From Folioceros fuciformis (taxonomy: Eukaryota), in contig JBNGIO010006281.1 of NCBI GenBank assembly GCA_049999805.1, positions 108,687 to 172,686 of the forward strand: a stretch of DNA of 64,000 nt. Reading direction: 5' to 3'. A model generated the notes under the pieces. It saw nothing but the letters and a program-made list of their open reading frames with translations, had not been told where the DNA came from and searched no databases. The stretch's first letter is position 1, and each line of letters starts with the position of its first letter. The translations under genes were made by a program, and so were the position numbers. Below are positions 4,671 through 32,282 of this stretch, in pieces.

Positions 4671-4696
4671 AAAACGATATTGGGACATTGCAAAAC

Positions 4697-4746
<50 letters not shown>

Positions 4747-11186: not shown

Positions 11187-13649
11187 CTAGTGTCTCAAGT
11201 CCCCGACCGGTTTTGTGCTTGAGAATAGTGGTTCCCTCCTAGCAGAATATGAACTTGCCTCAGTACCTGTTGTACGAAAGCTCAAAGATCCTGGGGTTCC
11301 ATAAGTGCCCTGACTTGGAGGTGCCATTCCCCTTACTGGAGAGGAGAAACGCCTACGTTCCAGAGCTTCTCTTGTATCTCCTGGTCCAGATCGTATATTC
11401 TCGTACTTCAGCATGCCAGGGATTGCAGGGGAGGCCCCGGTCCCAAACGCTGGATCCGCCTGGCTTTCTAGTCCAAAGTCCCTTTTCTTACTGAAGTACA
11501 GCCATCCTACAAACATCAACACGATGGAAAAGAATATAGGGCTACTCCACAGCTTTGCGTTGAAATCTGGGGGCCTTTGAACGGGCAGATTGGATATGTA
11601 AATGCCTACATATCCATCACCAAAACCAACCACCACCAACTTGTCACGATTGCCAGTAATCACAGGCCACTGAATTGGTTCAACCGGTGTGTTGACAAAC
11701 GAGAGGGATACCTCATCCATCGAGGAAGTAACAACAGGTCGTGTACCTCCTGCGCGAATGTTTGCATAACTGAAGCCAACTTGGGATGTTGTATTGTACA
11801 CATAAAGGTACTTGGGAGTGGCCACGAGCAGGTAACCTTTGATGGCATGAGGAACTAAGGGTCTCTCCACCTCCAAGGCCTTCTTCGTTCCCACCTGACA
11901 CTTGAAATGAAAAGTGTCCCCAGATAGCGCTACGTAGATAAGGTCACCGTCGACAGTGAAACCATAAGCTTTAGATCGTCCACCAGCATCGAACGTGTAA
12001 GCAACCACCTTAGAATCATTTAAGCCTTCACAAAAGCTCCTACGCACCGTCATATTCATAAGATCTAGGGATCCTGCACCCGTCTCTGTTAGAAAGAGAA
12101 GCCGCTGGGTATTTGGAGTCCGCAGGAACGCTAGCGGCCGACTGGGTGAGTGTGCCAATCCATGCAGTGACCCGTTCTCGCGAAACACCTGTAACTTTCC
12201 TCCTACGTCTGAGACCAGGAGGTAACGAATCTTGCCCACTCTATACATTTCAATGTTTGACACAGGCACACGATCCCCTGCAGCCCCGTGTTCTTTATCT
12301 GAGGCTGAGCCTTTCGTTCCACCTGCTGAATCTAAGCTTTCATCTTCATTAACAAGAGCCCTCTCACCATACATTGTAGCCAGAGAAGGTGACACCGGAA
12401 TACTTGGAGGTGGCACCAGCGAGTACATATCCTCCATCGACAGTGCATGCCATTCATCTCCGGATGAAGGTCCACGATACAGGGTTTCACATATACGGTG
12501 CATCAGCACAGCTCCATCAGAGTGACCTGTGATGAGAACTGTCTCGTTGGTGCGCAAAACATAAGAAAGCATGGAGGTAATTGGGGAAGTCGACAGAGTC
12601 TGATGATGCAGCAACAGATCTCCATAGGCCAGGAAAAGATAAACCTGGCCACTTTCATCACCCACAGCGACGTACCTACTGAATCCATCGTCTCCTTCGT
12701 GTGGGAGAACGTGCAAACAAGAGACATTGGAGTCCACCTTCACAGCAGACAGAAAGTGAAAGTGATCAGACCAGGCAGGCTTGTACCTTGCTATAGTCCT
12801 ACCACCAAATTTCTGGCGCAAGCTGTGGCTGTCAAGTGCTGCAGTATCATCCTGGTGCAGATGTTCAGTGCCACGTAGAGGTGTCTCGCCTTCGGGCCTG
12901 CCAGCAACCATCGATGGCGTTCTCCGCGGTGGCTCTGCTTCAACTGACTTCGGACTACGGCCACTTTCCGCTTCATGTAAATCGTGGAACTCTGCACGTC
13001 CTTCAACCCTCACTTTCTCTTGCGCTGTTAGGTTGATAACAGTGTCAGATAGCTTGCTAACAGCATCACCCATAGCAGCGACAAGGGATCTAAGTTGTGC
13101 AACCTGATCTTCCTGCCGCTGAGCCAACATCTCAAGCTTTAACAAGTGCTTCTCAGCACAGAGCTTTTGACGACCTACCTGACTGTCCTCCACATCTGCA
13201 AGCACAGTTTCTTCCCCAAGAACTGCCTCCATGCCCAGAGCTTCATGCTTCCCAACAGGTAAGACCTTGAATTCCAATTCGGGACACATTTCCACCCCCA
13301 CTCCTTCCAAATCTTCATCCAGCTGTCCTGTTGCCAGTAGCGGGTCTCTTCTTGCTGACTGCAAGCGCTCTAGTATCTCTGCCCCAAAAGCCTCATGCTT
13401 CCCAACAGGTAGGATTTTATATTCCTTCTCAGGGCACACATCCAGTCCCAATTCTTCCAAAGCTTCATCAAGCTCCGACGGTACCGGTAAAGGATCTCTT
13501 CTCACCAATTGAACACTGTGGCCTCCATCCGACGGCCGATCCACTCCCGATTGCATAACCTCTCCGCCCAGGACAGAACACGCAGGCGAGATCGATGCGA
13601 AAAAGATCATCCATGCTGCAATCAGCACGGTAAGCTGAAGACTTCTCAT
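11187..13649 (-). CDS. Uncharacterised type I membrane protein, At1g75140-like (signal peptide, coiled coil, beta-propeller-like lumenal domain, C-terminal TM); intronless, 820 aa
   Basis: ORF 11187-13796. ATG at 13649 begins a hydrophobic signal peptide (MRSLQLTVLIAAWMIFFAS). Family motif YKPAWSDHFHFLSAVKVDSNVSCLHVLP...YVAVGDESGQVYLF. TM LWSSPIFFSIVLMFVGWLYF followed by SKKR. Confidence 0.85.
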   Translation of the reverse strand: MRSLQLTVLIAAWMIFFASISPACSVLGGEVMQSGVDRPSDGGHSVQLVRRDPLPVPSELDEALEELGLDVCPEKEYKILPVGKHEAFGAEILERLQSARRDPLLATGQLDEDLEGVGVEMCPELEFKVLPVGKHEALGMEAVLGEETVLADVEDSQVGRQKLCAEKHLLKLEMLAQRQEDQVAQLRSLVAAMGDAVSKLSDTVINLTAQEKVRVEGRAEFHDLHEAESGRSPKSVEAEPPRRTPSMVAGRPEGETPLRGTEHLHQDDTAALDSHSLRQKFGGRTIARYKPAWSDHFHFLSAVKVDSNVSCLHVLPHEGDDGFSRYVAVGDESGQVYLFLAYGDLLLHHQTLSTSPITSMLSYVLRTNETVLITGHSDGAVLMHRICETLYRGPSSGDEWHALSMEDMYSLVPPPSIPVSPSLATMYGERALVNEDESLDSAGGTKGSASDKEHGAAGDRVPVSNIEMYRVGKIRYLLVSDVGGKLQVFRENGSLHGLAHSPSRPLAFLRTPNTQRLLFLTETGAGSLDLMNMTVRRSFCEGLNDSKVVAYTFDAGGRSKAYGFTVDGDLIYVALSGDTFHFKCQVGTKKALEVERPLVPHAIKGYLLVATPKYLYVYNTTSQVGFSYANIRAGGTRPVVTSSMDEVSLSFVNTPVEPIQWPVITGNRDKLVVVGFGDGYVGIYISNLPVQRPPDFNAKLWSSPIFFSIVLMFVGWLYFSKKRDFGLESQADPAFGTGASPAIPGMLKYENIRSGPGDTREALERRRFSSPVRGMAPPSQGTYGTPGSLSFRTTGTEASSYSARREPLFSSTKPVGDLRH

Positions 13650-14870
13650 AATGACTGACCCTGAGCCCCCGGAAGTGCAATCACTCTGCCGGGCTACCTG
13701 GCAAATTTGCAAGTTCAAAGCAACAGGACATTGCAGTTGGTACAAGCATACCCGGAAACAGCCAATCAGCAGATCTACTTCATCCCTCCTCTCCACGCAA
13801 GCACTTGCCAGCTCGTTGCCCTAACAGTCACAGGCTTGTCAAAAGCCTGTAAATTGTGCCGCATCCGCCTATCCGCCCATCCGTCTGTGCCCCCATACCG
13901 GCGGACGATGCCAAGAAGAGATGCATGTGCATCTGCATCTCCAGTTCCACCAGACGAAGTGATCACATATCCTCGCAGAAGGTTGTCCAAGCCTTCAGCC
14001 CGACGAATCCATGTCCCACTGCACGAAGGCAAGCGAGAGGAGTACCCAGGCAGTGGTAGAGTTCAGCGCAAACCCGTTTTCATCGACCTTGTACCTCGCA
14101 TCGAGCTGCAAATCCCCAGCCCAGGCACAGCTCCTGTCAGAAGGTTCGAAAACCTTCCTCCAGTACCACAACGCGAAGCAGTGCGGGCGGTGCTCATCAA
14201 ACACCGCCAAGCTGACAAGGTACATCCACAGGCATCCCCATCTCCGGATTCATCGATCCACCTTGCCCCAGCTCCTACCGAAAGTTGGTGGAGCGTCGAT
14301 GCCTACGGACCCCTCCACTGCGGCCGGAGCTTGGAGGTGGTGGAGGTGGCGGGCTGCGTGTGGCGTAGGGGTCGCGCCACTTGTCGACATACGTTATGGG
14401 AAAGGGACAGAAAGTAACTGCGTCAAAGTCATAGCAGAAATGCTTCCCCATCGGTAGAAAAGAATGGGGATGTTCCTAGAACGTCAATAGCATCTGGCAC
14501 TTGGCGCTGTCGATACGTATACATTAGGCAACCAGGCCTCACAAAACTCATGTTCCCAGCACCCAAGACGCCATGTTTGCTGCAGTTGACGTTCTGGTGT
14601 CGAGAAAGAAGAAACTCCTGACAACGAGCATCACATAGCCCCACAGGAAGTGATTTACCTCATCCCCAGAAGCAGGGACATATTCGGACAAGGATTTGAT
14701 ATTTGGGGTGGAACTATTCGAACGAAGAACAAGGACGTCGACGACACGCCGACACTGCTGCTGCAGCTTGAATGACAGGCAAGCCGGATTCACGATGGCT
14801 GGCACGCTGTACTCCTGCAGGACCTCATTGTATGTATGAGAACAGTAAAGTGCTTCATTGAGCTCAGCTC

Positions 14871-16274
14871 TCAGTTCCTTGTGACCCTGAGTGTGGATTT
14901 CCGATTGCTATTCGTTTTCACCCTGGTAACCTTGGGGGCACGGAGCTGTTCTGGAAGGAGGTTTCGCTGGGAGGATAGCTCGGCGATAAAGAGAACAGTG
15001 TGTGCCCATCCAGCATACTTGCCAAACCTTGTCACAAATGCCTGTGCAACATCATCATGCAATTTTGGTGTGAGCCGTTCCCCTGCAAGTTCTGGCACCA
15101 GGTAACGCACAGCAATCTGCGGATGACAAAACGTTCAGATGTTAGCTACACTCAGGAGGCAGTGGCAGGAAAGTGCTTTCCTTACTGTGACTCTCACCTG
15201 CCAAACATGGGTATCAACTGGAACTGCATGATGCTGGTCAAGAGAGAAGAGAGCAATGCAGGCCGCCACTTTGGGCCCAACACCAGGCAGAGTGCGTAGT
15301 CCTGTAACAGCCTCAGCGAGAGATGCCTTCCTTAGGGAGAGAAGCCAATCCCTGCCCGCATCCTTCTGAAGGAGTGCCTCTGCAGCTCCAACTATGAACT
15401 TTGCTCTGCAGCAATGAAAGTAAGGCAAGAATGTTTGAGGAAGGTGAAAAGTGAAACCGTAGGCGGCCATTTGTGGAGCACTGGGAAGAAGGTGGTGTCA
15501 CCTGTAGCCAAACCCAGCCTCACGCAGGGCAGTTTCCTTCACACTAGCCAGCTGCTCGAGGGTTGGAAATTGGTGGAACCGGAAGCCTCTAACTGTTCCC
15601 AGGTAAGTCCCCAAGCTGGCCAAATGATCCACCATGCCAGTGATCCTTTGCAGGTGATTGTTGGATGAACAGATGAACTGGAAGAGGCATTCCAAGGGAT
15701 CCTGCCTCAGCAGACGAGCACCTGACATGTATGGAGCAACTGCCGCAAATCTGTCATCCACTGCTTCAAAAGCGGTCCAGATATCCTTCAAAGACGTGTC
15801 CAGGTTGAGATAATCCTGAAGGACGGCTTCCACATCCTCCCCAGCCTCACTTGCAGGCACCAAGACATCAAGGCAAGACAGCTCCGTCTTTGCACGTGTG
15901 GCGCTGCAGCCAGAGGAAGGCTGTGCTGCAGCGGGTGGGTGCAGCAGAAACTCCACATCACGGTCAGTCTGGCGCAGGGAAACAAGGTGGGAGCCCACCA
16001 CACCTGTATACTCTGCATCACCCGTCTTCCTCCACCGGAATGTTTGGCCTGTGGGAAGGGTGAGCGCCAGACACAACTCATCAACAGTGACACCCAGACT
16101 TATCCAAGGCCCCAACCTCCCCCCACCACGGGGCTCCTGCTCTTGTTCTTGCTCTTGCTCAAGCCGCTGCTCAAGATCAAAGGTGAGAACTCTCCTTGTC
16201 CGCTCCCCGCGCACTCTCAACTCCTTGGCAACGATTCCGGCGCCCCCACCAGCAACCAATGGCCTCTTTCTCAT
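14871..16274 (-). CDS. OGG1: 8-oxoguanine DNA glycosylase/AP lyase; exons 16274-15502, 15405-15198, 15116-14871
   Basis: TLPTGQTFRW, RLLRQDPLECLFQFICSSNN, GFGYRAK, HhH-GPD LPGVGPKVAACIALFSLDQHHAVPVDTHVWQ, FGKYAGWAH. GT-AG introns keep the frame. The start ATG (MRKRPL) is inferred. Confidence 0.95.
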
Positions 16275-16726
16275 TCCCGCTGGCTCACTCTGCTGCCCAA
16301 CCCCAGAACCAGCACTAGTGCGCCTCAGTGCACGGTCCAAGGACGCTATCCTTCCATGGCTGCAGCATCTCGGCATGCTCCACATGCAGAGAATGAGCCG
16401 ACGATCCAACCAGCCAGAAAAGAAAATGGGATGCAAGCCCGCCTGACACCCAAATCCGGGCCAGCTAGAGCACTGTTGGAGAATTGTTTGCGCGTTTCTT
16501 GACGTGGAAGGATGCAAGGACATAGCAACTGCCGTGGCCTGTGCGGTGTACATGTACGTGTGGTTTACCAGTTTACCGTGAGGGTTGCGCGGTAAGCCCT
16601 GGGGGCTGCCGCCGCCGGGGCTTGGAGCGGAAGGCGGTAGGCAGGCGGTGGGGAGGAAGAAGAGCTGCCTTGCTTGCCTGCTTGTTGTGTCGCCCTGCCC
16701 TTCCCTCTGCCCGTTGCGAGCAGGCT

Positions 16727-17803
16727 ATGGCAAGTGGTGGGGATGGAGCAGGAGCCGAGGCAGCAGGGTGGCAGGAGAGCTTGATTCCCGGGCTGCCGGA
16801 AGAGGTTGCCTTCAAGTGCCTGACCCTCGTCCCGCGGCGGTGCCACCGGGTGATGCGCAGGGTGTGCAAACAGTGGTACAGGCTGCTGGACAACGACGAA
16901 TTCTTCGAGGCCCGGGCAAAGGCGAAGCTGGCTGAGCCGTGGATTCATGTCCTCACGCGCATCGAGGGGAGCCGGAACCCGTGGCGGGCCTTCGACCTGC
17001 AGTCCAGGAGGTGGATCAAGTTCCCGGACCTGTCAGCGTCCGTTTACGCGAAGCTGTCCCTGGTGGGGCTGCAGTGCCAGGTCGTGAAGGGGAAGCTGGT
17101 GCTGTGCGGGGGGAGATGGCAGGGCTCCATCATCAAGGACGTGCTGGTGTACGACCCCAGGACGGACAGATGGAAGGAGGGGGAGGGCATGCTTTCGCAC
17201 CGGGCGGATTTCGTGAGCGGAGTCATCGAAGACCAGCTATACGTCGCCGGGGGGAACAACGGGGTGCAGGGACGGACCAGGTCTGTAGAGCGCTACGACA
17301 TCGAGCAGAACCGCTGGTTTCCGGCGCCCAGCATGAACTACGACACTGCTTTCTGTCTGGGGGTCACCTTGGACGACAAGTTCTTCGTGCATGCCAAGGG
17401 CGGGCAGCCGGAGGAGACCCAGGTCTTCTGCCCCTTTCGGGGCCTCTGGAGCAGCTTCGAGGCCGAGATGCTCACCTCGCATCGGATCCATCCCTATGTT
17501 GTCAGCAATGGGCAGCTGTACAGGGCGGACATGCTGCCCACCAAGTTCGAGATCAAGGCATATGATGTGGGGAGCGATACCTGGATCAGCATGAAGCCCA
17601 CTCTCACCATCTTCCATCCCACCAAGTATGTGAAAGAGTTGGTGGACCTGGACCAGAAGCTGGGAATTGTCATGGATGACTTCAGTGTTGCCGTTGTGGA
17701 GATCGACCTTCCCAACCACAGCCTCAAGTACCAGTGGTTCTACTTGACTGCAGCAAATCCTTCCACCGACAGAATTGTCAGCTGCCATGTCCTGTATGCA
17801 TGA
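16727..17803 (+). CDS. F-box/kelch-repeat protein, intronless
   Basis: F-box LIPGLPEEVAFKCLTLVP...VCKQW; kelch repeats LVLCGG...YDPRTDRW and LYVAGG...VERYDIEQNRW. ATG at 16727 (MASGG). Confidence 0.93.
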   Translation: MASGGDGAGAEAAGWQESLIPGLPEEVAFKCLTLVPRRCHRVMRRVCKQWYRLLDNDEFFEARAKAKLAEPWIHVLTRIEGSRNPWRAFDLQSRRWIKFPDLSASVYAKLSLVGLQCQVVKGKLVLCGGRWQGSIIKDVLVYDPRTDRWKEGEGMLSHRADFVSGVIEDQLYVAGGNNGVQGRTRSVERYDIEQNRWFPAPSMNYDTAFCLGVTLDDKFFVHAKGGQPEETQVFCPFRGLWSSFEAEMLTSHRIHPYVVSNGQLYRADMLPTKFEIKAYDVGSDTWISMKPTLTIFHPTKYVKELVDLDQKLGIVMDDFSVAVVEIDLPNHSLKYQWFYLTAANPSTDRIVSCHVLYA

Positions 17804-18092
17804 ATGATGGATGGAAGTATGGATGGATGACAAATGGATGTTGAAGCTCAACACTAATATTAAGAATGAAGCTAGAGCTAGGAATGGCTTGCTTGTGTGG
17901 GTAGGGTATTGTGCTGGTACTGTACTGACTCAATGCTAGCCTTCTTGGTGGGTTCGCTCCACAAGATTAAAAAGCGTGTTCAACTGCATATTAGTGTACA
18001 AGTTGGCAGAGGGTGGATTAGTAAGTATGTTGTACAGGGCCAGTGCTGATGGATGGATCTACCGTTTGCCAATGGTAGATGCACCATCAGGG

Positions 18093-21000
18093 TCATGGCC
18101 GATTGTGCCGGAAGAGGATGAAGGCCACAAAGGCTAAGGAAGCGAAGATGAGGCTCATGCCTCCTAGGGCTACAAAGTCGAAACCGATGCGGGAGTAGTC
18201 TAAGGAACGGAGCTCCCTTATTCTGTCCCACACGAACTCACCGTCCAAGTCTGCAAACCGCTGGCAAGGGCAGGCCGGGCAAGGGCTGTGAGGAGGAGTA
18301 GGGCATGCCGTGCATGACGGCTGCTTGGTGTCGCAGAAGAAGCTGATGGATGTCAGGGTGTTGGTGACGTACTGGTAAGGGTTCGCCCAGAAGAGCCAAG
18401 TGTAGGAATTCGGTACCAGCAGCTTGGGGACCACCACGCCTGATGCTGTTATCCACAGTGACGAGATTATGGACACCGCGAATGCTGCAAGAATCGGCAC
18501 CGGCGTCGCTATGGTGAGCAGCATGCCGAAGTAGGTGACAGCCAGAGTGAACATGAAGAGACCCAGCCAGTACTGCAGTAAGTTGGCCAGAGAGTCTGTT
18601 GCGATGCCAGCCATTCCGTTGCCGATAGCCACGAACACGAGCGTGGCTATCAGAAGATAGGGGATTTCAGCCACCGCCCAGGATATCGGGTAGAAAATGG
18701 CTGCGTACATTCTGGCCCTCCTCTCCCTGAAGTACGCAAGCCGGTCCGTGCCGATCTGGGGGATGATATTGTTGGCGGTTACCACTCCGATGAGCATGAT
18801 CTGGATATACACAAACAGGGAGCTGGATGTAACAGCGAAGCTGTCCTTCTTGCCGATCTGGAAGTAAAGAGAACCCAGCAGCAGACCGATGGATATGGAA
18901 GCCGTGAGTCGGCCGAAGGTGTACTGGACATTCCTCCACAGAAACTTCTGTGTCCGTAGAAACACCATAGCCGCCTGCTTCCAGTACGAGGCTGCGTATG
19001 CGGTATCCACATCCTTGATGACATGCCTTCTGCTTTTCCTGCGCAGTTTGCCCAGCTCCTTGCTGTTCTCCTCCCCCAACTTGCTCTCTCGGTACACTCT
19101 TGCGAAGTCGTGGACTGGTGCCCTTCTCCTGATTCCAGCTCCCAGGATATCAAGCACGTAGGTGATCGCATTCTGGGAGCTGTGGTACTCAGGTACCTTA
19201 GGGATGGATGTGAAGTACCTCAGGAGCTCGGTGCAGTTCCAGCCCACAGGCCCGAAGTAGGCCTGCTCTCCGCCGGGTCCGAGGATGAGCACGCTGCTGA
19301 AGGCACTGAGCATTCTGGCACTGGGGTGCTGGATGGTGCTGATCACTGTCCTCCCCGTGGAAGCAATTATCTGCATGGCTTGCAGGATGTTTCGGGCACC
19401 GATGCTGTCCATACCAGAGGTGGGTTCGTCCAGGAACAAGACGCTTGGGTTCGCCGCCAGCTCTACTGCAATGGTGATCTTTTTGGCTATCTCGTAAGTC
19501 CTCCCCGTGGCATCTCTCAGAGAACCTACCAGATGCTCACTCACAGGATGGAGATCCAGTAGCTCCAGGATCAGCTGCACATGCTGCTCAAGATAGCCCG
19601 AATAGACGCTGTTTCCCAGCCGCAGAATGGCGCTGAAGCGCAGCGATTCTTTCACTGTCAGGAAGGGTTGATGGGCATCCAACTTCTCAGCGAAGCCCGA
19701 GATGCGTGAGAACGTGGCAACACTTGGCTTGTACCCGTTCACCAAAATCTCTCCCAATTTCTCGCCGTAGGATGCCCTGTTTGCTAGACACTTGAGGAGG
19801 CTGGTTTTACCGGATTTGGTGCCCCCCAATAGTGCTAGCATCGCTCCTGATTTGCAGTACCCCGAGACTTTGTTCAGTATCACTTGGCTCTGCCCCTTGG
19901 CATCCTTGCAGGTGAATGTGAGGTCGTGGAAGGAGATTGCCACGGGCGTGACTGGGATGTGGTGGTTAGGCCACCCTTTCATCCCCTCTTGATCACTGGC
20001 GCATGCCTCTTCGTCATAGGCTTCTCTCTGTTGTTTACTGAGAAAGTACGACCCCACATGACTGTCACCCCCAGAAGTCGAGGAGGATGGAGATTCGTCC
20101 AGCTGCAAGACCATTGGAGTGGCCTTCTCTTGTGGAAGGGAGTTGTTGAGCTCTGTGTACCTTAGTTTGCTCAAGGCCCGGTGTGCAAGGATTAATATGA
20201 GAACTGTCCACCCCAGAATCACGCCGAAGGAGACCAGTATCCAACCGCTCCCTGTCTTCAGCTGGTAATATTTGAGATACGCGTCCCCAGTCTGCATGTC
20301 GGGATTTACCTTGCAGAATGGCAAGTCCAGATGGAGGTGACAAGAATCCTCGTAAGCACTACCTCCGATTTGGGTGATGCAAAAGGCCATGTTTGCCCAA
20401 TGAATTGGATTGGCGTAGTACATCCACTTCCACCACATGGGAATGTTGTTGGGATAGATGAGGAAGCCGGAAAAAAGGAGGAATATGGAAACGAGTAATC
20501 CTGTGAGAGGTGACCCACTGAAGGTGTTAAGGATTTCAACTGAATACCAACACGCTCGAAGGGGCTCGCATTTTGCTTAGAATTGCTTATTTGCGACCGA
20601 CCAGGATACTGGTTCGAGGCTTACCACCCAATGCACTTGCAGCTTCCAGTATTGGTGAGATGGCGCTCAGTAGGAAGAAGAGACATGATCCAAAGAACGC
20701 TATAGAGCACAGAAGTCCCCAATACACGAAGAAGTGCAGTCCACCGTCCTTGGTGGAAAGGCCTGCTCCAAAATAAACGCAAACACAATAGAGAGATCCC
20801 TGCCAGTCCAAGTCCAGTACAGCAATTTGTTAGAGGTTGTCTTGAACGGCGCTATCTTAGTCGAGGATGACTTATCAGGACCCACCTCAACTATGGACTG
20901 TGGCAAGGAAATGGCACTATGAGCGATAACGTAGGACGAAGCTCTGAAGAAGCGCTGGTCCCATTGCTTGTAGAATATAGGACGTTGCATCATGTAAACA

Positions 21001-24000
21001 GGTGCTTGTACTGAGTTGATGAGCATAATGCCCATTGTGGACACAAAGCCGAGCCCGCGGATAGCATTCATTTCCAGGATTCCGGGTTTGCCTCCCAGCC
21101 CCTTGAAGATGGTTCCAGCAACCAAACTGAGGATCAACACCTGCAGGTGAGGCAAGAAAGCGCATTTTTGAAGACGCGGTTGTGGGGCGAGCAGATGGAT
21201 GGCACGACCGTTATCTCGTTCCCCAAGGAAAGGGAGGGAGGCTGGTGCGTGATGCTACCTGCAACAGTCGGAGTTGAATAAGGATGGTGAGTCTTTTGGT
21301 AAGTTTGAGCTGGCGTTTGATTAGCGTCAGTGTGGATGGCCACCATCGTTGGACGTGCTCTTTAGAGAATTGGCCGTCCACCATCTCTTCCGCGTCCTCT
21401 GCATTCGACTGAAAGAAACGGGGGCACAGAATTTCATCATCGCTTGTCACGAGCATTCCTAGTCCTCCACTTCATCGGGCAGCACGATTAGCATTGGGCT
21501 GGAACCAGACCTGGGTTTCAAGTGTGCGTTGCAGTTGCAGACGAACATGACCTCGTGCATTGGAGAGAAGAGTGGACACCCTGGCGGCTTGGTTGGTCTG
21601 GTGGTCCTGTGACCCAAGAGCGAGGTACTCCATTCCGCCAGCTGGGCATGAGATGGCGGTCACCACATCCCCAACCTGAATGTTCCCTGTACTCTCGATC
21701 CCTCTGCTGTAGTCCACGTTACCGGACAGCTTGGCCACCACCACCTCTGTGCGGGACGAGAAAACAAGGCGATGGGGATGAGTCGGCAAGCAGACAGGCA
21801 GGCAGGCACATGAGCGATGGCAACCATACAATCGTCACCAAGGACAACATGATCACTGGATGGCCACGGCCACACTTGGGGATGCTAAACATACCGGGGC
21901 CGAAGAACAGTTTGGACGTGGAGCCATCGTCAAGGTGCTCGGCCCTCTCCGCCTTGCGCACAGAGAGACCCAAGTTTGGCTCGCTCTCCACCCAGAAGGT
22001 GTGCAACACCTCGTCGCTCGTCACGATCCGCATCACATCCCGACGGAGATCGGAGTCTCTGTAAGCCTTGACCAGGTCCTGGAGGTTGGGAACGGGCAGA
22101 CCGTCCTCCACGTACTGAGACCCCTCGCCCGCTGCGATCTCCTGAAGAAACTCCCCGGAATCCACGTGCGCGGGCTTCACAAAGCTGCAAGAGGCAACAA
22201 ACCCGATCACTCAGAGCCTGCTGTTGCTGTACAAGAAGTGGCGTGGCAAGTCACCCAGTAGCATGTCGCAATCTTGCAGTGTGCTCACCCGAGCTCCTCG
22301 AAGTAATGCAGCGCGTCCTGGCGGGGGCCCTGGTACAGGATCCTGCCCTCCCCGAGCAGGATGACTCGATCGAATAGGTGGAACACCTCCTGCGACGGCT
22401 GGACCAGCGACATGACCGCGGAGCACTGCTGGAACCTGCTGATGGCCCTCAGCGTGGACACCAGGTCGTAGGTGGCCAGCGACTCCTGCCCCGAGCACGG
22501 CTGGTCGTACAGCATCACGGCGTACGTCCCCATGGCGATCTCCGCCGTGGTGAGGCGGTTCCTGTCGTTGTCCGTGATCCCAGCCCCCGGGTTGCCCACA
22601 ATCTCGTTCTCGATGGCCTTGAGCCCCAACACATGCAGAATGTACTCCAGATACGGGTCCTGCCCCTCCACCAGCGCGTGAGCGAAGAACTTGCGCAGCT
22701 GCGGGGAGAAGTTCTTGGGCCGCAGGCCCTGGGTGCACTCCCCCGCGAATTCCAGCGTCTCTCGCACCGTCAGGCCCGCCAAATGCCTGCATCCATATCG
22801 TCCACCAGGGCCACTAGTCAGTGGCATTGGAATTGTTGCAAGTCTGCAGAGCGTTGCATCCGGCACACGGAAGATCGAGAGCGTCACTTGTTTAGCTGGC
22901 CGTTGATGTAGGCGATGAGGCGAGTGAGCACAACCTCGGACGCGTCCCGGTCGTTGTACTTCACCCAGCCCTCCAGCTTCACCGTCTTGCTGGTTTCCGC
23001 TCTCCCAGCAAGGACCTGCCAGACACGGCGTGGAACAACACCACAACGATCCCTTTCATCATCAACCACTGCGACAAGCACGCATGATATCGGCGAGCTC
23101 CAGGTGGCCAGCTGGCTCCATACGCGCACCTTGAGGAGGGACGTCTTGCCGCTCCCGGGAGGGCCCAGCAGGAGCGTCATGGAGCCGGGCATGATGTAGC
23201 CGTGGACGTCGTGGAGGATCTCGTAGGTGACAGCGGCCTTGGATCGGGCGCGGAGGAAGGGGTTGAGGAGGAGGCCGGCGGTGATGTTGTACACCTTGTT
23301 GCCGAAGGTCTGGAAGGCCTGCTCCGGCGGCAGCAGCTGCGCAGTGTAGCTGATGCCCCCGAAGCGCACCACCTGGCGGGGGACGGGCGGGGTGAGCCTG
23401 GCCACGTCCCGGAGGTAATTCACGATGCCGTCCTTCATGATGAACTCCATGCCCAGCAGCATCGGCTCCGCCATGATCATCAGGCTTCTGCCCTTGCTGT
23501 CCAGCTGGTCCCGGTCCCCGCCTCCCCCGCCATGGGGGTGCAAGCGCTGGAACGCCATCTCCGCGTCCGCCAGCATTCCTTTCTGCTTCAGCAGCCGGTA
23601 CATTTGCAGCGCCACGTCCTGCACATTCTCCGTCGCCGCATTCGCCAGCTTCCGCGCCACGTCCGGGGTCTGGGAGCCCTGCAGACCGGGCAGCCTTGCC
23701 CGGGTCATGGGCGTCTCGCTTCCCCGCACCGGCACCACGAACACCTGCAGACCAGCAGCAGCTCAAGGCAAGGATTACGAGGCGCCTCACTCTCACATTA
23801 TCAACAATGCGGGAACGTCTCAACAAAGAAAGACGCAGCAACCGAGCCCGCACCTGGTCCTGGTGCGGAGTCTGGGTGGAGGGGAACTCCAATCCGTCGA
23901 ACCCCTCGGATCTGGGAGAGGGCTGGAAGCTGAAGCCGAAGGCGACGTTGTCCACCGACGCAGGGTCGAAGGTGTCCGTGCTCATATTGTTGTAGAAGCT

Positions 24001-24162
24001 GTACCCGTTGCCGCTGGCGCTGACGCTGAAGCTGGGTACATCGACCCCGTCACCGTCTTCCAGCACCACGGCGTGCTCGCCCTGCCACCAGATAGGCTTC
24101 GCCGCCGGCTTGGACCGGAAATGGAGCGGCGAGCGCATCCACCTGCCCCGCGGACTGGCCAT
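18093..24162 (-). CDS. ABCG: Full-size ABCG (PDR-type, NBD-TMD-NBD-TMD) protein with a PDZ-like insert; exons 24162-23854, 23744-23130, 23015-22888, 22786-22289, 22184-21895, 21746-21511, 21408-21259, 21140-20886, 20799-20625, 20500-18093
   Basis: Walker A1 MTLLLGPPGSGKTSLL, LTVRETLEFA, YQGPRQ...YFEELGF, TMD1 QRPIFYKQ, NBD2 ITIAVELAANPSVLFLDEPTSG, TMD2 RLAYFRER. All introns are GT-AG and frame-consistent by manual splicing. Start codon uncertain. Confidence 0.92.
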
Positions 24163-24687
24163 GGCCGAGACCGAGGAATTGGAGACGACTCGAAGCGGCT
24201 TTGCCACGGCGTGAGTCCTGTTTCCGGATCCGACTCCGCTCCTTCCTACCTGCTCCTAGCCTACATGCATGGTTCTTGACCAGTTAAAATAGCTGTTCTG
24301 ATGCAACTCCGGGACCGGGAGCTGGACTAGAGCATTTGCCATGGACGTTGGATCCTGGCTGCCAAGCCTATGTACTGGACGGTCCAGGATCCCAGTAGAA
24401 GAGGGGCAGGGTGGAACCGAATCCGGGCGAACGTGGGGTGTCGGATCTCGACCGGCGGAGTGTGGTGGTGCCACTGGGGAATCGAAAAGCGCAAGGCCGG
24501 CTGCTCCACGCGGCGGCAGCCGGCTCCATGGCAGCTTGCCGCCAAGTGGCGCCTTGGTGAATTCCGGGTAGTAGGGGAGAGGAACGGCCGATGCAACTGC
24601 ACAGTCCAAGGAAGACGGGGGCGGGCGTACTGTGTAGGTTAGAGGGGGAAGGCAGCAGCAGCCGACCCGACCCGACCCGACAGGACG

Positions 24688-27049
24688 ATGGGGAGCCTTG
24701 CCTTTGCTCCTGGGGCACCATCAACCGGGGCGGGCCGATTCCGATTCCGATTTCGATTCCTGCCCTCTCGGCCCCGCCCCTGTCGTACCTGGCGGCTGTG
24801 CCGTGTCGGTGCCACCCCGGCGCGAGCTGCCACGTCGGCGGAGCCATTGATGCGTCTCCTGCGGCACAATCACAATGCGGTCGCCTCTGGTGGATGCTCT
24901 CCGGAGGACGCCCTGCGGCGGGGCCGCTGGGTGAAGCTCATTTGTGGGGCGAGCCTTGAGGTAGGAAGGAGGGTAGACTGCTTTTCCTTTCCTGACCTTT
25001 GCATTGGGGGGTTGGGCATTGAGAGTTCGGTTGGTGGAGCAGGATGTGGCACAAGTGCGGAATCTGGCTCTGGTTTACACGCTTGCCGGAGGTCAGTATT
25101 CCGTGTTAGGAGCAAGAGTGGTGAAAAAGGGCGGGGGATGGCTGATGATGGGGTGGTGTGGTGTGGTTGGCAGTGGACTGCATCGACTGTGCTGCCGACC
25201 CTGCTGTGGTGAATGCGGTGGTGGAGGGTGTGGAGGTGGCAACCCATTTGGCATCTGCTTGTGCTGCTCTGGACTGGCTCAAGCCATGGCTCATGGTGAG
25301 CATCAATGATGACCGAGATCCCCATTTTCGAAAAGCCGGTGAGTCCGTCTTGCATTATGCCTCATCCCAACCATGTCCACGGCATGTGCTCAATCACAGC
25401 TTTTCATGCGGGTGATGTAGAATTCGATGCCGACCGATGCCCTGTCGACTGCCCCCGCCCTTGCGAGCGGGTGTGTCCTGCTTCCGCTATAACCTTCGGC
25501 CACCAGAGGGTTCGTGCTCCTGCTCCTGCCTCTTTTCTCAATTCATTGTTCCTCTTGCACATTACCCAACACGACCCTTGGGATTGCGTCGGCACACAGG
25601 AAGGTGTTATCACCGAAAGATGCTATGGGTGCGGAAGGTGCCTGCCAGTTTGCCCCTTTTCCATGATCCGTAAGTTTGTCCATGCCCCATGTCAGCCCTC
25701 GAGTAGATCGTGGCCACAGTCCACTACAAGGAGGATAACCCTCAAGCCCTGTATCCCCAGGAGCAAATACCTACATCAGGGGATTGGACACGGTCCTTGA
25801 GCTTCTTAGCAGCAAACATGTCGACGCTGTCGAGATTCACACAGGAGAAGGGTAGCTTTTCGTTCCCTTAGTTGCTTTGCCTTCCAGGATGTTCCCTCCA
25901 CCACCTCTCCTGCCCAGCCCACCATATCCGTTTGTATCTGTTGTGCAGCCACTTGGAAGCTTTTGCAAAGCTGTGGACGAGTTTGGCAGGGGCTGTGCAA
26001 CAACTGAAGCTCGTGGCTGTTAGTTCTCGTTCTGTTCTTCCTTTGTCGCTCGGCTATACACCCTTCTCGTTTTCAGACCAGAACAAATGAAATGAATGTT
26101 TGCCATTGTTTTGCTTGCAGGTGAGTGTACCTGACCTACGCGAATCCATGATTCCGAGCTTGGCAGCTATGTACATGATCATGCAACCCTCTTTGAGAAG
26201 CTTGAATTTGTGGCAGGTCCCAGTTCCCTTCATTTGGGCATACAGTATCCAACGGCCTCGCATTGCTTTCCTTTGCTTTGCCTTGCTGCCTCTTGCACTA
26301 ATCACTTCACCGTGTCTTGTCTCACTGCAGCTGGATGGACGGCCTATGAGCGGAGACATAGGTGCAGGTGCCACACGGGCTGCAGTGGCACTTGCTGCTC
26401 GTGTGGCTTCCTCGTTAGATCGGCCTCCCGGTAACACCTTTCTCACTTGCGTTTGACAGGGAATGAACTGTTTGCTACTATTCTGCTGACGGGACCTCGC
26501 TTCGTTCTCTGTCCAGGCTTTCTTCAGCTCGCTGGTGGAACCAATGCTTACACACTGGAAGCCTTGAGGAAGGCTGGTTTCTACACGGATAGTAAGCCAC
26601 ACTGACTGCCCGTGCACAAGTGATTTTTTCGGCAAACAAAGGTCACGCTTCAGAACCACTTATTTCGAAACTAACGCACACAGCCTGTTGCTGCTGCAGT
26701 CACAGCTGCGTTCGAAAGGGAAGTAGGCATAGCTGGTGTAGCTTATGGCGGGTATGCCCGAAAGGTACAGTCTCTTTTCCAGTCAAGCTGTGCTCCTTTG
26801 TCCCGTGCCTGCTGGGTACCATGGACCTCATGCACTCCTGGTAATACTGCTCTGTAGATAGTGAGTAAATACCTTGCCGAGATAGAGAGAGGTGTGCAAA
26901 GCGAGCAAGACACAAAGAAGCCCATGCCTCGACTCCGGTTGGAATGTCATCCAACCCTTCTCTTCGAAGCCGTGAAGCAAGCCAGTGCCCTCGTGCAACC
27001 TAGCAAATCCGGAACATGGACTACAGTCCGAGAGACAGATATAGCTTAA
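24688..27049 (+). CDS. ldpA: LdpA-like 4Fe-4S ferredoxin-domain protein, probably plastid-targeted, multi-exon
   Basis: WVKLICGAS, VYTLAG-DCIDCAADPAVV, PWLMVSINDDRDPHFRKA, CPVDCPRPCERVCPA, CYGCGRCLPVCP, QLDGRPMSGDIG, QLAGGTN, GVAYGGYA. The Arg/Ser/Ala-rich N-terminus resembles a transit peptide. Confidence 0.88.
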
Positions 27050-27112
27050 GGATATTCTACAGTGGACAGGTGTCGCCGGCTAAAACTGGAGGCATCCTCC
27101 GATTGCGCACTG

Positions 27113-28782
27113 TCAAACCATGGTTTTTGGGCCGCCAATCTCCTTTCTTGAATGCTTGAATTCGTTCGGCAGCTCGTGCTCCACGAGCTCTTTCGCCCCT
27201 TCAACTAAACTCCTTACGACAGCTGCGGCGGACTCGATGCTCTTGATTCGCCCAACACCAGTTCCAGCGTACATACACATGCTCATGATATCACCCTTGG
27301 CCATCACATTGGGAACCTTCCCCGAAAACCGTGGAACGGACTCATCCTGCTTGAGAAGTGTGAGCCATTAGCAAACGGTGTCGGGATCGTGGTGCTTGCC
27401 CGCGTGGGTACACATGACATACATCCACGGTGCATAGTGAATGATCATTTTGAGCATGATGGAAGAGGATGACGAACGAAGTAGCACACGAGCACTTGCG
27501 GCTTTGTTACCTTCTCGTATACTGTCGTTGAGCCTACAATGGGCTGATTCAGCTCAGTCGTCTGGTCAGTGACCTTGTGCTTCCATTCTTCGAAGAAAGC
27601 TGTTCGCAAAACTCGCTGAGGAGCCCCAGGCCATCGTGCTCGGCCGTAAATATTCGTATATTCTGTGCTTGAATCAGCAGCGTCAACGAGCGCTCTTTTG
27701 TACACAGGATGCGCATAAGCCTCGAACGTGGCCACAAACCTGTCCCGTGCAGAGCGGCACAAGGTCATACCCACTTCCAGTAGCCTCAGAATACACATCG
27801 GCATCAACAGCAAAGGTTGGATACAAGACTCACCGGGTTCCAAGACACACACCCTGGGCACCAAGAGCCACAGCAGCAACATATCCCCGAGCGTCCACGA
27901 TGCCCCCAGCAGCCACCACCGGAATGCCAAACGATTTCACAGCATCCACAACACTGGGGAGGAGCTCAAACATGGAAACCTGGCACGCATCAGACAGTCC
28001 TTGTCACAGCCTTGTACATTACTGCAAACAAGACTCACTGTCAAGCTACCTTCCCGCAGACATGTCCTCCAGCTTCAAGGCTTTGCGCAATGATGGCATC
28101 AACACCTGCTTCAGCCGCTCTTATGGCCTCTTCCACTGAGCCAACCTGCATGAGAGAACACAGCAAAATGCTCACGCCAAGTAGCTCTCCTCTGCACATA
28201 AACTTCGAGCATCACTACCATGTTTCCAAACACGTGTTCTCTTTACGAGCACGTCATCAATGTATACCTGATGAACTACTTTCACACCTGCCCGATGAGC
28301 TTTCTCGACAAGTGGCTTTGGAAATTCACCCCAGGAGATGTGCAACACGGCAACCTCCTCGTGCAATGCAGCCTTCAGATTCCGCTCATGAGGAAACGCC
28401 AGAATGATGCCGATTCCGAAAGGCTTATCGGTTTGCCTCCTGGTTTTGCGAATAAGGTCCTGAACCAGCTCTGGATTGTCCTAAATTCCGTTCAACCACG
28501 AGAAGACTAGACGTCAGAAAAATCTGAACAAAGCTCCCAATTCTAACATCTGCGAGCTCGACTTCCATCTTTCCCATCCATATTTCCCCCGATGCGCTGG
28601 AATGCTCGTTTCCAGCTGAAATCCCCATTCCTCAGACCACATGAACAGGAATTCAAGTAGACCTGATCTGGAGCTCGCAGAAAGCCTATACCACCGGCGC
28701 TGGAGACGGCAGCCACCAGCGTTGGCCCGCTGATATCAGGCCCCATAGGAGCCGACATGATTGGATACTGAGCTCCAAACAT
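27113..28782 (-). CDS. Nitronate monooxygenase (2-nitropropane dioxygenase) family flavoprotein, multi-exon
   Basis: MFGAQYPIMSAPMGPDISGPTLVAAVSSAGGIG, AGVDAIIAQSLEAGGH, PVVAAGGIVD, ARWPGAPQRVLRT, MCMYAGTGVG. Confidence 0.9.
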
Positions 28783-29186
28783 TTTCCGGCTCAGGCGCAC
28801 TGCTCGGGGAAGGAAATCAGCACGTTCCTCGACAAATCGCTTCTTCCCGAGCGGGAGCACTCTTCCCTCCGGCCGCCTGCTCTGCTCCGCTCTGCACAAC
28901 GGCAGCTCCTGAACCGAATACCGGAGTGTGGGCCGCAGCAAAGCAGTGACACTTGGCGCCTTCAAATTCGCTGTATGAAAAGGGGCGCACTGGCTCCTCG
29001 TTCCGGGATTAGGGCTTTACAGGGATCGTTGAGAGCCTGAGCAGATATCAACTGCTTGTCGCTGAATTCGGTAGAAATTGGAAGACTTCCCAAGGTGGTT
29101 CATCGTATGTATTTTGAATTGCCAAGGGATACATATATATTTGAGCTAGTGAATCAGAGGGTGTGTCCACGACGTGTTTTGTCATC

Positions 29187-32100
29187 ATGCTTGCCGCCTT
29201 GTCTTGGATTCCCAAGGGGGCTGCCAAGAGCGTGCCAGTGGAGGCGGAGCCTAACGCTGAGGAACTGCAGGCCATTCTGCAGGCCGAAGGCCAGGAGAAC
29301 ATTGATGCTAGGTGCAACTCTGACAAGAAAGCCTTCGATTTTAGTAGTTTTGACGGTTCGGGGGATGTGACTGTGGAGTCTGCGTGAATGCAGTGCTGAC
29401 ATAGACGAGGACGAGAATTTTGAGGATGCAGATGAAGAGGAACGCGCTGAGAGCAGTAAACGTAATGACAGTGTAAGAAGGGCTGTACAAGCTGCTAGGG
29501 CTCTGGGAACCAGTTTTGGCAAGAATGGATTGGATGAGCTCTCGGAAGGGCTTGCTGAGCTGGATATGGATCATTACGATGATGAAGATGGAGGTGGGCA
29601 GGCGTTGTTCTTGCGGCAACAGAGCTTTTTTGTGAACCTTGTGAACTGCAGCGCACTTTCTGATCTCACGGATTTTACCGATTGTTAAGTGGAGTGATCC
29701 GTGGCGTGGGTGCCGGGCATGATGCAGCAATTGACCTGTTCGGCAATGGAGGGCTTGGATCGACTTTTTATGCAAGCAACAAAGATGACCCTTATTTGCT
29801 CGACAAAGATGTATTGCCCTCATTTTCTTACCACCTCAGTAGTGATTTTGTTTTTCTGGCATCTTTCAGCCGTTTCCAGCTGGCTGTTGTCTCTCTGGAT
29901 CGTAGGATGATGACGACGATGAGATAGAGGACTTGACATTGAAGCCAACTGATCTCCTTATTGTTACTGCACGGAATGAAGATGATGTCAGTTTGATAGA
30001 GGTATTGCTGTGTGCCTACAATTTCCGATGAAGCTTGGCTTTTTGGGCATTTTTTTCACCATGGTTTTGATTGGGCTTAGGATATGGGCAGGTTTGGGTA
30101 TATGAGGCAGGAACAGATAATGATCCAGAGACCAACTTGTATGTCCATCATGACATCATGTTACCCGCTTTCCCCCTCTCCCTTGCATGGATGAACTTTA
30201 ATGTCGCCAATGGTGATGAAGGTAGGTTGGGTCGGGCATCTAGAATCATCTTACTGTGATCACCGAGTTTACAGCTGCCAATTGTCCTCATGGCTAATGT
30301 GATCTTGTTCCAGGGAACTTTGTTGCTGTTGGAACAATGCTGCCCCAGATCGAAATTTGGGATCTAGACGTGGTACGTTCCATAAACTGGTGCCTGGTTG
30401 TGTCTTTTGAGTAAGATAAGCTGGGGCTTTATTATCTTCTAGCACCTATCAGCGGCTTCGCTCTTGGGCTCCTGTCCCTCGTATCTAGACATGAAGATTT
30501 GTCACTTTATACAGCTTGACGAGGTGGAACCCGCGGCTGTGTTGGGTGGTCAAGTTGACGCCAAGTCGAAAAAAAAGAAAAAGAAGAAAAAGGTAATGCT
30601 TTTTCGTTATTGAGCTCCTCGGATTTCACCTGAGTGCTGCCATCTCTCAATGAGGAATGTCTGTTGTTGCAGGAGATGAAGCTCAAGGAAGGCAGCCATA
30701 CAGATGCAGTTCTTGGGCTGTCATGGAATCCGGAGTATCGGTAGGTATCCTGACTAGCTTCGGGGTACACCTGTGGGATTGCGTTCAGTCATATTCATAG
30801 TAATTTGTGCTCCTGTTTTTTGGATTGAACAATCATAGCTGTTTTATTGCACTTGTTGCTGAAAAAGTGGCTTTCTTCAGAAATGTTCTAGCAAGTGCGA
30901 GTGCAGATACATCCGTTAAGATTTGGGACATAGCCGTCCAGAAGTGTGCACATACGCTGCAAATTCATAATGACAAGGTGTGCATTATCATCGGTTTCCA
31001 CATGCCAAGTAGAAACAAAGAAGTTTTGCTAGCTTCTTCATTTGGTGTATGTTGGGTCACCTTTGCTCTGTCTGTGGTTTACACGTCTGTGCTTGCGTTT
31101 TCAGGTTCAGGCTGTTGCTTGGAATCAGAACGACAAAATGATTCTTCTCAGTGGTTCCTTCGATCACACAGTGGCTGTGGTATGCTCAGCAGTAAACTGT
31201 TGAAAGTGTTGAGCAAGACGTGCGTCAGTTTACTGTTCTGAGTTGTTGTTTTGCCACCCGACAATGTAGTAACTCTTGTAAAATTTTGCCCCAACAGGCA
31301 GATATGAGGACCCCTTCTCTTGGAGCTCCGAGGTGGAGTGTCTCTGCTGATGTGGAGAGCGTCGCTTGGAATCCCCACTCCTCCTATCAATTTCTGGTAG
31401 TTATTCCTTTTACCATGTCTGGCAGAAGTAGGAAGGTTTGTATGGTCACCCGTTCTTAACCTTGCTTAGTTTGTCATTCTGGGTGCAGGTCAGCCTAGAT
31501 AACGGCCTGGTCACTTGTCATGATAGTCGTAAGGGGGCACTGTCATCCCAGGCTCCTGCAACCGATTCTGTCTATACAATTCATGCACATGATAAAGCTG
31601 TGTGCAGCATCTCTTACAATCTCTCAGTCAAGAATGTAACCTCTGGACCTTATGCTTTCCAAGATGCGTGACTAGTTCAATGTTTTCAGCTGTTTCCAAG
31701 ATAACTAATAGTTTTTCTGATTGCAGCTACTTGCTACTGCGTCTTCTGACAAAACGGTGAGAGCTGTGACTCGTCTTTCCCTTTAGTGTATCTTTGCAAT
31801 TTGGTGTCCTAAAAGAGTAGTGACAAGGCAATGTCCTTGGTTAAGCAAGGGAGAAGCGATGGTTGTTTGGAAACATATAGTCGTTTGACTTAGGTCCTAT
31901 GTGCAGGTTAAGCTGTGGGATACCACCGGGAACCAACCATCTTGCATCGTTACGACAAATCCGAAAGTGGTACGCCCGAGTAGGTGATTAGGTCGTATTG
32001 AATGAGAGTCTCGTCTCAGGAGTAAAATTCTAAATCTGGTGACGGTGTGTTGTCCAGGGAGCCATTTTCACATCGGCTTTTTGCCAGAGTTCTCCATTTC

Positions 32101-32282
32101 TACTAGCACTCGGAGGCTCCAAGGGTACTTTGCAGGTAAGCGACAGTCTTGAGGATGTGCTTCCGTGGACGATGGGAGAGTCCCGCTGAATCCTGTTGTT
32201 CGTCATCTGTGTGCAGATATGGGATACGTTGGAAAATTCAGAAGTGCGCCAAAGGTTTGGCAAAGCTGCTCATTCGCAGTAA
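29187..32282 (+). CDS. PWP1: Periodic tryptophan protein 1 (WD40, ribosome biogenesis), many small exons
   Basis: MLAALSWIPKG, ELDMDHYDDED, NLYVHHDIMLPAFPL, VAVGTM-PQIEIWDLDV, HTDAVLGLSWN, LASASADTSVKIWD; last exon IWDTLENSEVRQRFG...TAA at 32280-32282. Confidence 0.93.

Follow-up and report, generated by a model that had tools for sequence, protein, structure and literature searches.

The window analysed here, 64,000 nt of the Folioceros fuciformis contig JBNGIO010006281.1, carries on its minus strand a gene for a full-size ABCG protein (nucleotide-binding domains, NBD, and transmembrane domains, TMD, in the order NBD-TMD-NBD-TMD) in which both composite ATP sites depart from the consensus. 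Transcription of the gene is evident from spliced contigs, related proteins across the land plants carry the same replacements, and an ATP site 2 altered in this way is rare among other full-length ABCGs. The preliminary description of this region, made from the sequence alone, had taken both sites to be degenerate and the protein for a possible pseudo-ATPase; the departure of both sites from the consensus is borne out, except that the Walker B motif of NBD2 (LDE) is canonical, and the term pseudo-ATPase is plausible from the chemistry of the motifs. We propose, as a reading to which we give about an even chance, that the protein would be the functional product of an expressed gene, belonging to an old clade of full-size ABCGs of land plants, and that ATP binding would set its conformation while little or no ATP is turned over.

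All ten motifs quoted in that description are present on the minus strand within 19280-23180, and the frame that it reported over ten exons is indeed intact (Table 1). Among the joints listed, eight of the nine introns are confirmed by spliced contigs of public runs. A 7750-nt contig of run X1 has no mismatch to the window, and six predicted introns are spliced out of it at their exact borders (20499/20624, 20798/20885, 21138/21257, 21408/21511, 21746/21895 and 22184/22289, reading CT..AC, that is GT..AG on the minus strand); this spliced, mismatch-free cover extends over exons 4-10, exon 4 in part. The contigs of runs X2-X4, which are 90-95% alike, show the same splicing and add the introns 22785/22887 and 23013/23128, and at intron 1 contig pieces end at 23741 and 23747, adjoining the predicted acceptor at 23744. 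The RNA label of X1-X4 is the tool's guess, and it is because these contigs are spliced that we regard the gene as transcribed. X1 gives no cover at about 22431-23063, and over the 5' third of the gene there are only short contigs of low depth.

Clade-wide conservation of the altered ATP sites and rarity of the altered site 2

The equivalence of the sites was fixed by ungapped alignment to the solved chains of Pdr5, Cdr1 and ABCG25. In Pdr5, NBD2 and the C-loop of NBD1 form the catalytic nucleotide-binding site 2 (NBS2), and NBD1 and the C-loop of NBD2 form the degenerate NBS1, as given in the available text of Harris 2021. In this scheme, site 1 consists of Walker A and Walker B of NBD1 with the NBD2 signature, and site 2 of Walker A, Walker B, Q-loop and H-loop of NBD2 with the NBD1 signature. 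Site 1 of the window protein combines a perfect P-loop with an Asp-Gln Walker B, no switch His and an RTYEI signature. Site 2 has a Lys at position 4 of the P-loop, retains Asp-Glu, carries a Lys in the Q-loop and a His shifted by one residue, and its signature reads T-D-N-D in place of S-G-G-Q/E. GITDNDRNR of the window protein lies ungapped opposite VSGGERKR of Cdr1 and Pdr5, and YDQP opposite WDNA of Pdr5 and LDQP of the ABCG25 chain 8i3a. The degenerate site 1 of PDR-type proteins is thus present (Gln446, no NBD1 switch His, RTYEI), and the canonical catalytic site 2 is not, three of its eight positions deviating (signature TDN, Q-loop Lys, Gln at the His position). Two apparent oddities need to be qualified. 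The NBD2 Walker A, GGTKSGKT, satisfies GxxxxGK[ST] and is unusual only against the ABC-type GxxGxGK[ST], where it has its Lys at position 4; and an NBD1 'H-loop' without His (SLVQP) is what PDR-type proteins normally have, Leu standing there in 7/7 canonical PDRs and 5/5 clade A rows (see below).

A search of 1.84 billion representative proteins returned a distinct top group 41-57% identical to the window protein, followed by ordinary PDR-type proteins at 27-30%. The 31 closest full-length relatives, 46-53% identical (46-56% for the clade), come from a liverwort, a lycophyte, a fern, a gymnosperm and 27 angiosperms. Named members include Calypogeia (liverwort), Selaginella and Diphasiastrum (lycophytes), Adiantum (fern), Cryptomeria and Taxus (gymnosperms) and several dozen angiosperms, among them Magnolia, Camellia, Hevea, Manihot, Eucalyptus, Coffea, Setaria and Eragrostis. 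An alignment of 51 rows was built from the window protein, 33 clade members (these 31 with the paralogous Selaginella P0006 and Eragrostis P0196, giving 34 clade rows with the window), 10 more distant relatives and 7 canonical plant PDRs. In the PDR-rooted FastTree tree the 34 rows form a clade at support 100 whose internal order follows plant phylogeny, the window protein pairing with the liverwort row at support 97. Its sister is clade B (Spirogloea_b, a second copy, Ceratopteris, P0012 and P0014), and next out is clade A (Chlorokybus, Closterium, Spirogloea and second copies of Calypogeia and Riccia); a node of support 100 joins both to the window's clade. For convenience we name this last clade the 'YDQP' clade. 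Its traits are Tyr-Asp-Gln-Pro in the NBD1 Walker B, Asp or Glu where the NBD1 signature has its first Gly, TG[KR]T[FY]EIAKK in NBD2 and the His one residue past its canonical H-loop place (+1), and the window protein has all four.

Within this clade the replacements are close to uniform. The NBD1 Walker B has Gln in 34/34 rows, where 5/5 clade A rows have Glu, and the first Gly of the NBD1 signature is Asp or Glu in 34/34 rows, where 4/4 clade A and 7/7 PDR rows have Gly. In the same signature Ser/Thr is found in 33/34 rows, the second Gly is kept in two, and Asp/Glu occupies the Gln/Glu position in 32. On the NBD2 side, the Q-loop Gln survives in 3/34 rows and is Lys/Arg in 27; the H-loop His stands at +1 in 31 and at its canonical place in one; P-loop position 4 is Lys/Arg in 28 (Gly in 5/5 clade A and 7/7 PDR rows), and the P-loop Lys is present in 26. 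The successive positions of the NBD2 signature motif [KR]-T-[FY]-E-I are occupied as written in 26+4, 28, 25+7, 30 and 30 of the 34 rows. Clade A is canonical at every counted position (5/5 rows, or 4/4 where one row is gapped), and the seven PDRs are so except at the NBD1 Walker B, where Asp replaces Glu in 2/7. In clade B the NBD1 signature, the Q-loop and the H-loop are already degenerate, and in the comparison of clades A and B an NBD1 Asp-Gln occurs outside the window's clade in only one clade B row of four. A further 27, mostly partial, clade members were scanned for NBD2 only and gave a Q-loop Gln in 0/26 aligned and a canonical His in 0/27. The preliminary description had reckoned with orthologs of canonical motif as the sign of a decaying copy; the opposite was found, the 34 aligned members and these 27 all being non-canonical.

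A second step of erosion is seen at NBD2. The six non-flowering rows of the clade retain the P-loop Gly6 (6/6) and mostly the Walker B Asp (5/6), and in the angiosperm rows Gly6 is lost and this Asp is changed to Glu in 28/28. The step (angiosperm orthologs P0166-P0196 and P0256-P0281) appears to date to the angiosperm stem. The grasses are also without the NBD2 P-loop Lys (GGANGSVAT). Diphasiastrum has likewise lost the P-loop Lys, together with the Walker B Glu. Judged by its motifs, the window protein is one of the mildly altered members of the clade, its NBD2 keeping GxxxxGKT and Asp-Glu.

To place these changes among full-length ABCGs, 208 of 254 fetched proteins were retained after BLAST to the window NBDs, those shorter than 1200 aa or incompletely aligned being dropped. 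At the eight site-2 positions, the 170 rows outside the clade pattern show no deviation in 156, one in 8 and two in 1; at least three deviations occur in 5/170, and four of these five belong to clade B. Rows that do show this pattern number 38, Ceratopteris (clade B by the tree) among them, and have 3 to 8. The NBD1 Walker B Glu, by comparison, is missing in 53/170 of the other ABCGs, eight of which have Asp-Gln together with a normal SGG signature. Since a Walker B without Glu is thus common in NBD1, site 2 is the unusual part, and the preliminary description had overstated the NBD1 changes. In terms of sequence, the NBD1 change is one form of the degenerate site 1 for which PDR-type proteins are known (Stockner 2020 and Harris 2021; a hallmark of PDRs in the accessible part of Stockner 2020), and the remodelled site 2 is the rare feature. 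Because the replacements recur in 34/34 clade rows and are absent from 156/170 others, they represent more than chance.

The same residues are under constraint. Scored as the mean fraction of the top residue over 33 clade rows, P0006 being left out, conservation reaches 1.00 for YDQ, 0.91 for the NBD2 signature region and 0.82 for the NBD1 signature; the NBD2 Walker A is the least conserved motif of the clade (0.63 vs an NBD2 mean of 0.73). NBD1, which is 64-76% identical between the window protein and its orthologs, is more conserved than NBD2 in 7/7 clade pairs, and the reverse holds in 3/3 clade A pairs and 4/4 PDR pairs, so that the usual asymmetry between the two domains is inverted in the clade. 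As far as the alignment tells, the replaced residues are conserved and not drifting.

Candidate modes of action

According to the proposal made above, both composite ATP sites would have been remodelled in the clade and then held in their new state by selection. Site 1, with its perfect P-loop and invariant Asp-Gln, would most likely bind ATP tightly without hydrolysing it: since the P-loop is intact the site should bind and hold ATP, and exchange of the Walker B Glu for Gln is described, in the available text of Stockner 2020 and Harris 2021, as stopping hydrolysis and locking the ATP-bound state. Site 2, the catalytic one in other PDR-type proteins, would be impaired or repurposed; it is without the glycine-rich signature that clamps the gamma-phosphate, with carboxylates in its place, the Q-loop Gln is lost, and in angiosperms P-loop and Walker B residues are lost as well while the gene persists. 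ATP binding, with at best slow hydrolysis, may then set the conformation of the conserved membrane domain, and the protein would work as a switch, channel, receptor or very slow transporter that ATP gates or stabilises, not as a fast pump.

An ordinary ATP-driven exporter, in which site 1 is the usual non-catalytic PDR site and site 2 hydrolyses despite the divergent NBD1 signature and Q-loop, is in our view possible rather than probable. Its strongest case lies in the window protein itself, where NBD2 keeps the residues that would be catalytic (Lys1117, Asp1243, Glu1244 and, nearby, His1277), a Walker A that fits GxxxxGKT and a Walker B reading LDE. With the P-loop Lys and Asp-Glu kept and the His one residue off, hydrolysis at site 2 may therefore persist. 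Such an exporter is also consistent with the +1 His of 31/34 clade rows, with the conservation of both transmembrane domains (0.75 each), as expected of a working transporter, and with a site 1 whose degeneracy is normal in PDR-type proteins, including the eight other ABCGs that combine Asp-Gln with a canonical SGG. It has to contend with a signature that closes over the ATP of site 2 with Asp423 and Asp425 where Gly and Gln/Glu stand, with Lys in place of the Q-loop Gln, and with Lys instead of Gly at P-loop position 4. Moreover, sister lineages have lost the P-loop Lys, Gly6 and the Walker B Asp and yet kept the gene, so that site 2 as the engine is hard to reconcile with these losses, and NBD2 evolves faster than NBD1 in the 7/7 clade pairs, the reverse of the seven canonical pairs (three clade A, four PDR). 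That the odd motifs arise instead from a decaying or mis-modelled copy, through relaxed selection, sequencing error or wrong splicing, is highly improbable: nothing supports it directly, the thin cover of the 5' third being the one point on its side, and it is already contradicted by the frame open over 5064 nt, by spliced contigs without mismatch over exons 4-10 (exon 4 in part) and relatives spliced alike, by motif states shared by 34/34 orthologs across land plants with NBD1 64-76% identical, and by a dN/dS of about 0.12 over the coding differences listed.

A bolder explanation, which we consider doubtful, is that site 2 is no longer an ATP site at all and that the carboxylates of the signature, Asp423 and Asp425 in the window protein, would latch onto Lys/Arg of NBD2, here Lys1114 and Lys1158, without nucleotide. 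The Asp/Glu at the first Gly (34/34) and at the Gln/Glu position (32/34) would then serve as a built-in phosphate mimic facing the new basic residues, Lys/Arg at P-loop position 4 (28/34) and in the Q-loop (27/34), and a single non-hydrolysing ATP at site 1 would be the only ligand-controlled hinge. If true, the protein would be a natural sensor of ATP, or a gated conduit, that works with one nucleotide and has been conserved throughout the land plants. Covariation of the signature acid with the Q-loop base across clade B, looked for by eye, is not clean and is confounded by phylogeny, and it was not used as evidence.

Several points weigh against the proposal of a binding-driven protein, beginning with the intact catalytic residues of NBD2 and the conserved membrane domains that have been set out for the exporter. 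The window protein deviates at 3/8 site-2 positions, the bottom of the clade range of 3-8. In the clade as a whole, the +1 His, the P-loop Lys (26/34) and a Glu at the catalytic position (27/34) suggest that site 2 still handles a phosphate-like ligand, and an H-loop mutant of Pdr5 reportedly keeps its ATPase activity. The tree was made with FastTree only, without bootstraps, and P0006 is on a long branch. The dN/dS, which the preliminary description had suggested as a test, is 0.12-0.13 for all three runs X2-X4 against the window (for X2, 27 synonymous and 11 non-synonymous differences) and counts for the proposal, but the value comes from 38 coding differences (among 40 of 421 listed) in the last 187 codons, where no NBD is covered. 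The literature searched, that outside subscription journals, gave no biochemical data on any member of the clade.

Gene model, linker insert and neighbouring genes

Table 1. Coordinates of the ABCG gene and its motifs in the window
Feature	Position	Strand	Remark
Full-size ABCG coding region	24162..18093	-	10 exons, 5064 nt, 1687 aa; single terminal stop at 18095-18093
Exons 1-5	24162-23854, 23744-23130, 23015-22888, 22786-22289, 22184-21895	-	From stop-to-stop open reading frames (ORFs) and scored GT-AG junctions
Exons 6-10	21746-21511, 21408-21259, 21140-20886, 20799-20625, 20500-18093	-	From stop-to-stop ORFs and scored GT-AG junctions
NBD1 Walker A GPPGSGKT (site 1)	23142..23165	-	Canonical; Lys in 33/34 clade rows, one row gapped
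NBD1 Q-loop AYINGQLNKH	22783..22913	-	Split by intron 3; one-residue insertion vs canonical PDRs; Gln in 27/34 clade rows
NBD1 signature GITDNDRNRLTTAE (part of site 2)	22540..22581	-	T-D-N where canonical SGG stands
NBD1 Walker B and D-loop VMLYDQPCSGQES	22480..22518	-	VMLYDQPCSG from 22518; catalytic Glu to Gln446 (CAG, 22503-22501)
NBD1 switch region MSLVQPS	22393..22413	-	No His, as in PDR-type proteins generally
PDZ-like insert, NBD1-TMD1 linker (aa 578-687)	21526..22003	-	Split by intron 5
NBD2 Walker A GGTKSGKT	19803..19826	-	Fits GxxxxGK[ST]; Lys at position 4 vs Gly of ABC-type GxxGxGK[ST]
NBD2 Q-loop GFAEKLDAH	19671..19697	-	Gln to Lys1158; ungapped onto Pdr5 GYCQQQDLH
NBD2 signature region TGRTYEIAKKITIAVEL (part of site 1)	19458..19508	-	RTYEI at signature; clade-specific motif
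NBD2 Walker B and D-loop VLFLDEPTSGMDS	19404..19442	-	VLFLDEPTSG from 19442; canonical Asp-Glu
NBD2 H-loop ISTIQHPS	19320..19343	-	His one residue after canonical place; ungapped onto CTIHQPS of Pdr5 and Cdr1

The full-size, PDR-type architecture of the protein is found both in its domains and in its alignment to Pdr5 and Cdr1, which bears out the order NBD-TMD-NBD-TMD. Pfam profiles match exon 10 with ABC_tran (E 1.7e-11) and ABC2_membrane (1.1e-29), the latter also matching exons 8 and 9, and the Walker A region of exon 2 gives a sub-threshold ABC_tran score (21.1 bits, cutoff 25); the two-fold ABC_tran/ABC2_membrane pattern is found as well in the 8/8 relatives scanned. The plant PDR-associated domain PF08370 was not reported for the exon 10 ORF at E <= 0.01; in Cryptomeria (25.3 bits) and Calypogeia (27.9) it is just above the cutoff of 24.9, and the other six proteins scanned are without it. 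In the last extracellular loop a cysteine-rich stretch, FFCDT..C..C..C.C.C.R, lies at about 18200-18330 of the window (minus strand) and recurs in clades A, B and C (P0001-P0014). The G+C content varies from 0.34 to 0.63 across 2-kb windows of 1..64000, and the 5' exons of the gene are in the richest part (22001-24000, 0.625).

The linker between NBD1 and TMD1 holds an insert of 110-150 aa in clades A, B and C (all five clade A and both clade B rows shown), which is absent from the canonical PDRs P0252 and P0212. No Pfam PDZ profile matched the exon 5 and 6 ORFs of the window at E <= 0.01 or eight full-length relatives at E <= 1. The Selaginella insert was modelled from a 13-row alignment at moderate confidence (mean pLDDT 63.8, pTM 0.58), and all PDB matches listed by Foldseek for this model are PDZ domains, the best E being only 3.1e-3 and the TM scores 0.40-0.53. 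We regard its likeness to PDZ as a lead only. As the insert is present in clade A with fully canonical motifs, it predates the change of the ATP sites, and this co-occurrence makes it no argument for a sensor role of the degenerate sites; the fit between the PDZ insert and a sensor or regulator seen by the preliminary description is therefore weak.

On the plus strand, an intronless 425-aa ORF at 16526-17803, convergent on the 3' end of the ABCG gene, has an F-box (1.9e-6) and Kelch repeats (Kelch_1 5.4e-23), and the X1 contig over the ABCG exons extends about 4 kb past window position 18000, across this neighbour. An ORF at 15498-16724 (minus strand) contains the N-terminal domain of 8-oxoguanine DNA glycosylase (OGG_N, 3e-26). 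The 877-aa open frame at 11187-13820 (minus strand), considered as a tandem ABCG paralogue, was rejected as it is not an ABC protein; it has a weak match to the second beta-propeller of RSE1/DDB1/CPSF1 (1.6e-4, below the cutoff). Finally, the ORFs of a Ty1/copia-type retrotransposon are found at 41548-45727 (plus strand), with gag, integrase core, SH3-like and RVT_2 (2.2e-37) domains, the reverse transcriptase being split over two ORFs.

Comparison with known ABC proteins and significance

The solved fungal PDR transporters Pdr5 and Cdr1 (7p03, 9s2c, 9iuk) are the best sequence matches in the PDB (NBD2 E 1e-53, NBD1 part E 1e-21 to 1e-19), and they have in common with the window protein the reverse topology NBD-TMD-NBD-TMD and an NBD1-TMD1 linker, which in the fungal proteins contacts site 1. 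Like Pdr5, where Asn334 replaces the NBD1 Walker B Glu according to the available text of Harris 2021, the window protein has a non-catalytic type of site 1. They differ at site 2, which in Pdr5 is canonical (VSGGE, Lys911, Gln951, Glu1036 and His1068 in the same text) and in the window protein carries TDND, a Q-loop Lys and the shifted His. When Pdr5 was made symmetrical it lost its activity (Harris 2021). The NBD1 P-loop Lys, intact in the window protein, is Cys in Pdr5 (Stockner 2020, accessible part). In the present alignments, on which alone this point is judged, Pdr5 is without the PDZ-like insert.

The canonical plant PDRs (among them P0252, P0212, P0216 and P0227) belong to the same superfamily, with the same domain order; in both the NBD1 switch is without His, and the NBD2 signature of the PDRs is itself already off LSGGQ (LSTEQ). 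They are only 28-30% identical to the window protein over NBD2-TMD2, are without the insert of 110-150 aa and, unlike it, show the expected SGG, Asp-Glu, Gln and His wherever site 2 was checked (7/7 rows). Clades A and B are closer, sharing with the window protein the N-terminal extension, the PDZ-like insert and the Cys-rich last loop, but clade A has DEISTGLD, VSGGERHR and CTIHQPS in every row aligned at the motif. The LDQP of the ABCG25 chain 8i3a equals the YDQP of the window protein in the residues Asp-Gln-Pro, and this chain matches slightly better (6.6e-18) than 8i38, the other ABCG25 sequence (1.7e-17). We take 8i3a (ABCG25), 6hbu and 6hco (ABCG2) to be engineered Walker B E-to-Q mutants that trap ATP. 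Such proteins are homodimers mutated in the laboratory, with both sites changed alike, whereas the change in the window protein is natural, asymmetric and fixed in 34/34 rows. In the ABCC proteins CFTR, an ATP-gated channel, and SUR, a channel regulator, one site is non-catalytic and nucleotide binding or occupancy gates or regulates instead of driving bulk transport, as far as the consulted sources extend; their subfamily and their fold are different and one of their sites is still a catalytic consensus site, so that the analogy is one of mechanism only.

In the literature, Cho et al. 2020 describe, in the part available, 'V1-Type' early-diverged full-size ABCGs in charophytes, mosses, Selaginella and Amborella, stated to be absent from other angiosperms. 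From its taxon list, this type probably corresponds to clades A, B and C together; contrary to that statement, magnoliids, monocots and many eudicots have members of the clade. None of the words Walker, degenerate and PDZ is used in that paper, and in a 2026 survey of the ABC genes of plants the Walker motifs come up, in its accessible part, in general terms only. The literature searched contained no description of these motifs or sites, of a PDZ-bearing ABCG or of the named Selaginella accessions. No Arabidopsis row was among the clade matches in our searches, which returned canonical PDRs of Brassica napus and Oryza, and this may explain why no studies were found.

The current understanding of asymmetric ABC proteins is that one catalytic site of consensus type is retained. 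If the reading proposed here is true, a conserved clade with a natural Glu-to-Gln change in one site and a remodelled other site would challenge this picture, and it would offer a natural experiment on an ABCG membrane domain working by ATP binding alone. The clade extends from liverworts to flowering plants, with crops and trees such as cassava, tea, coffee, rubber, eucalypts and millets, and it could be a sign that plants have a class of ABC sensors, channels or regulators that has gone unrecognised.

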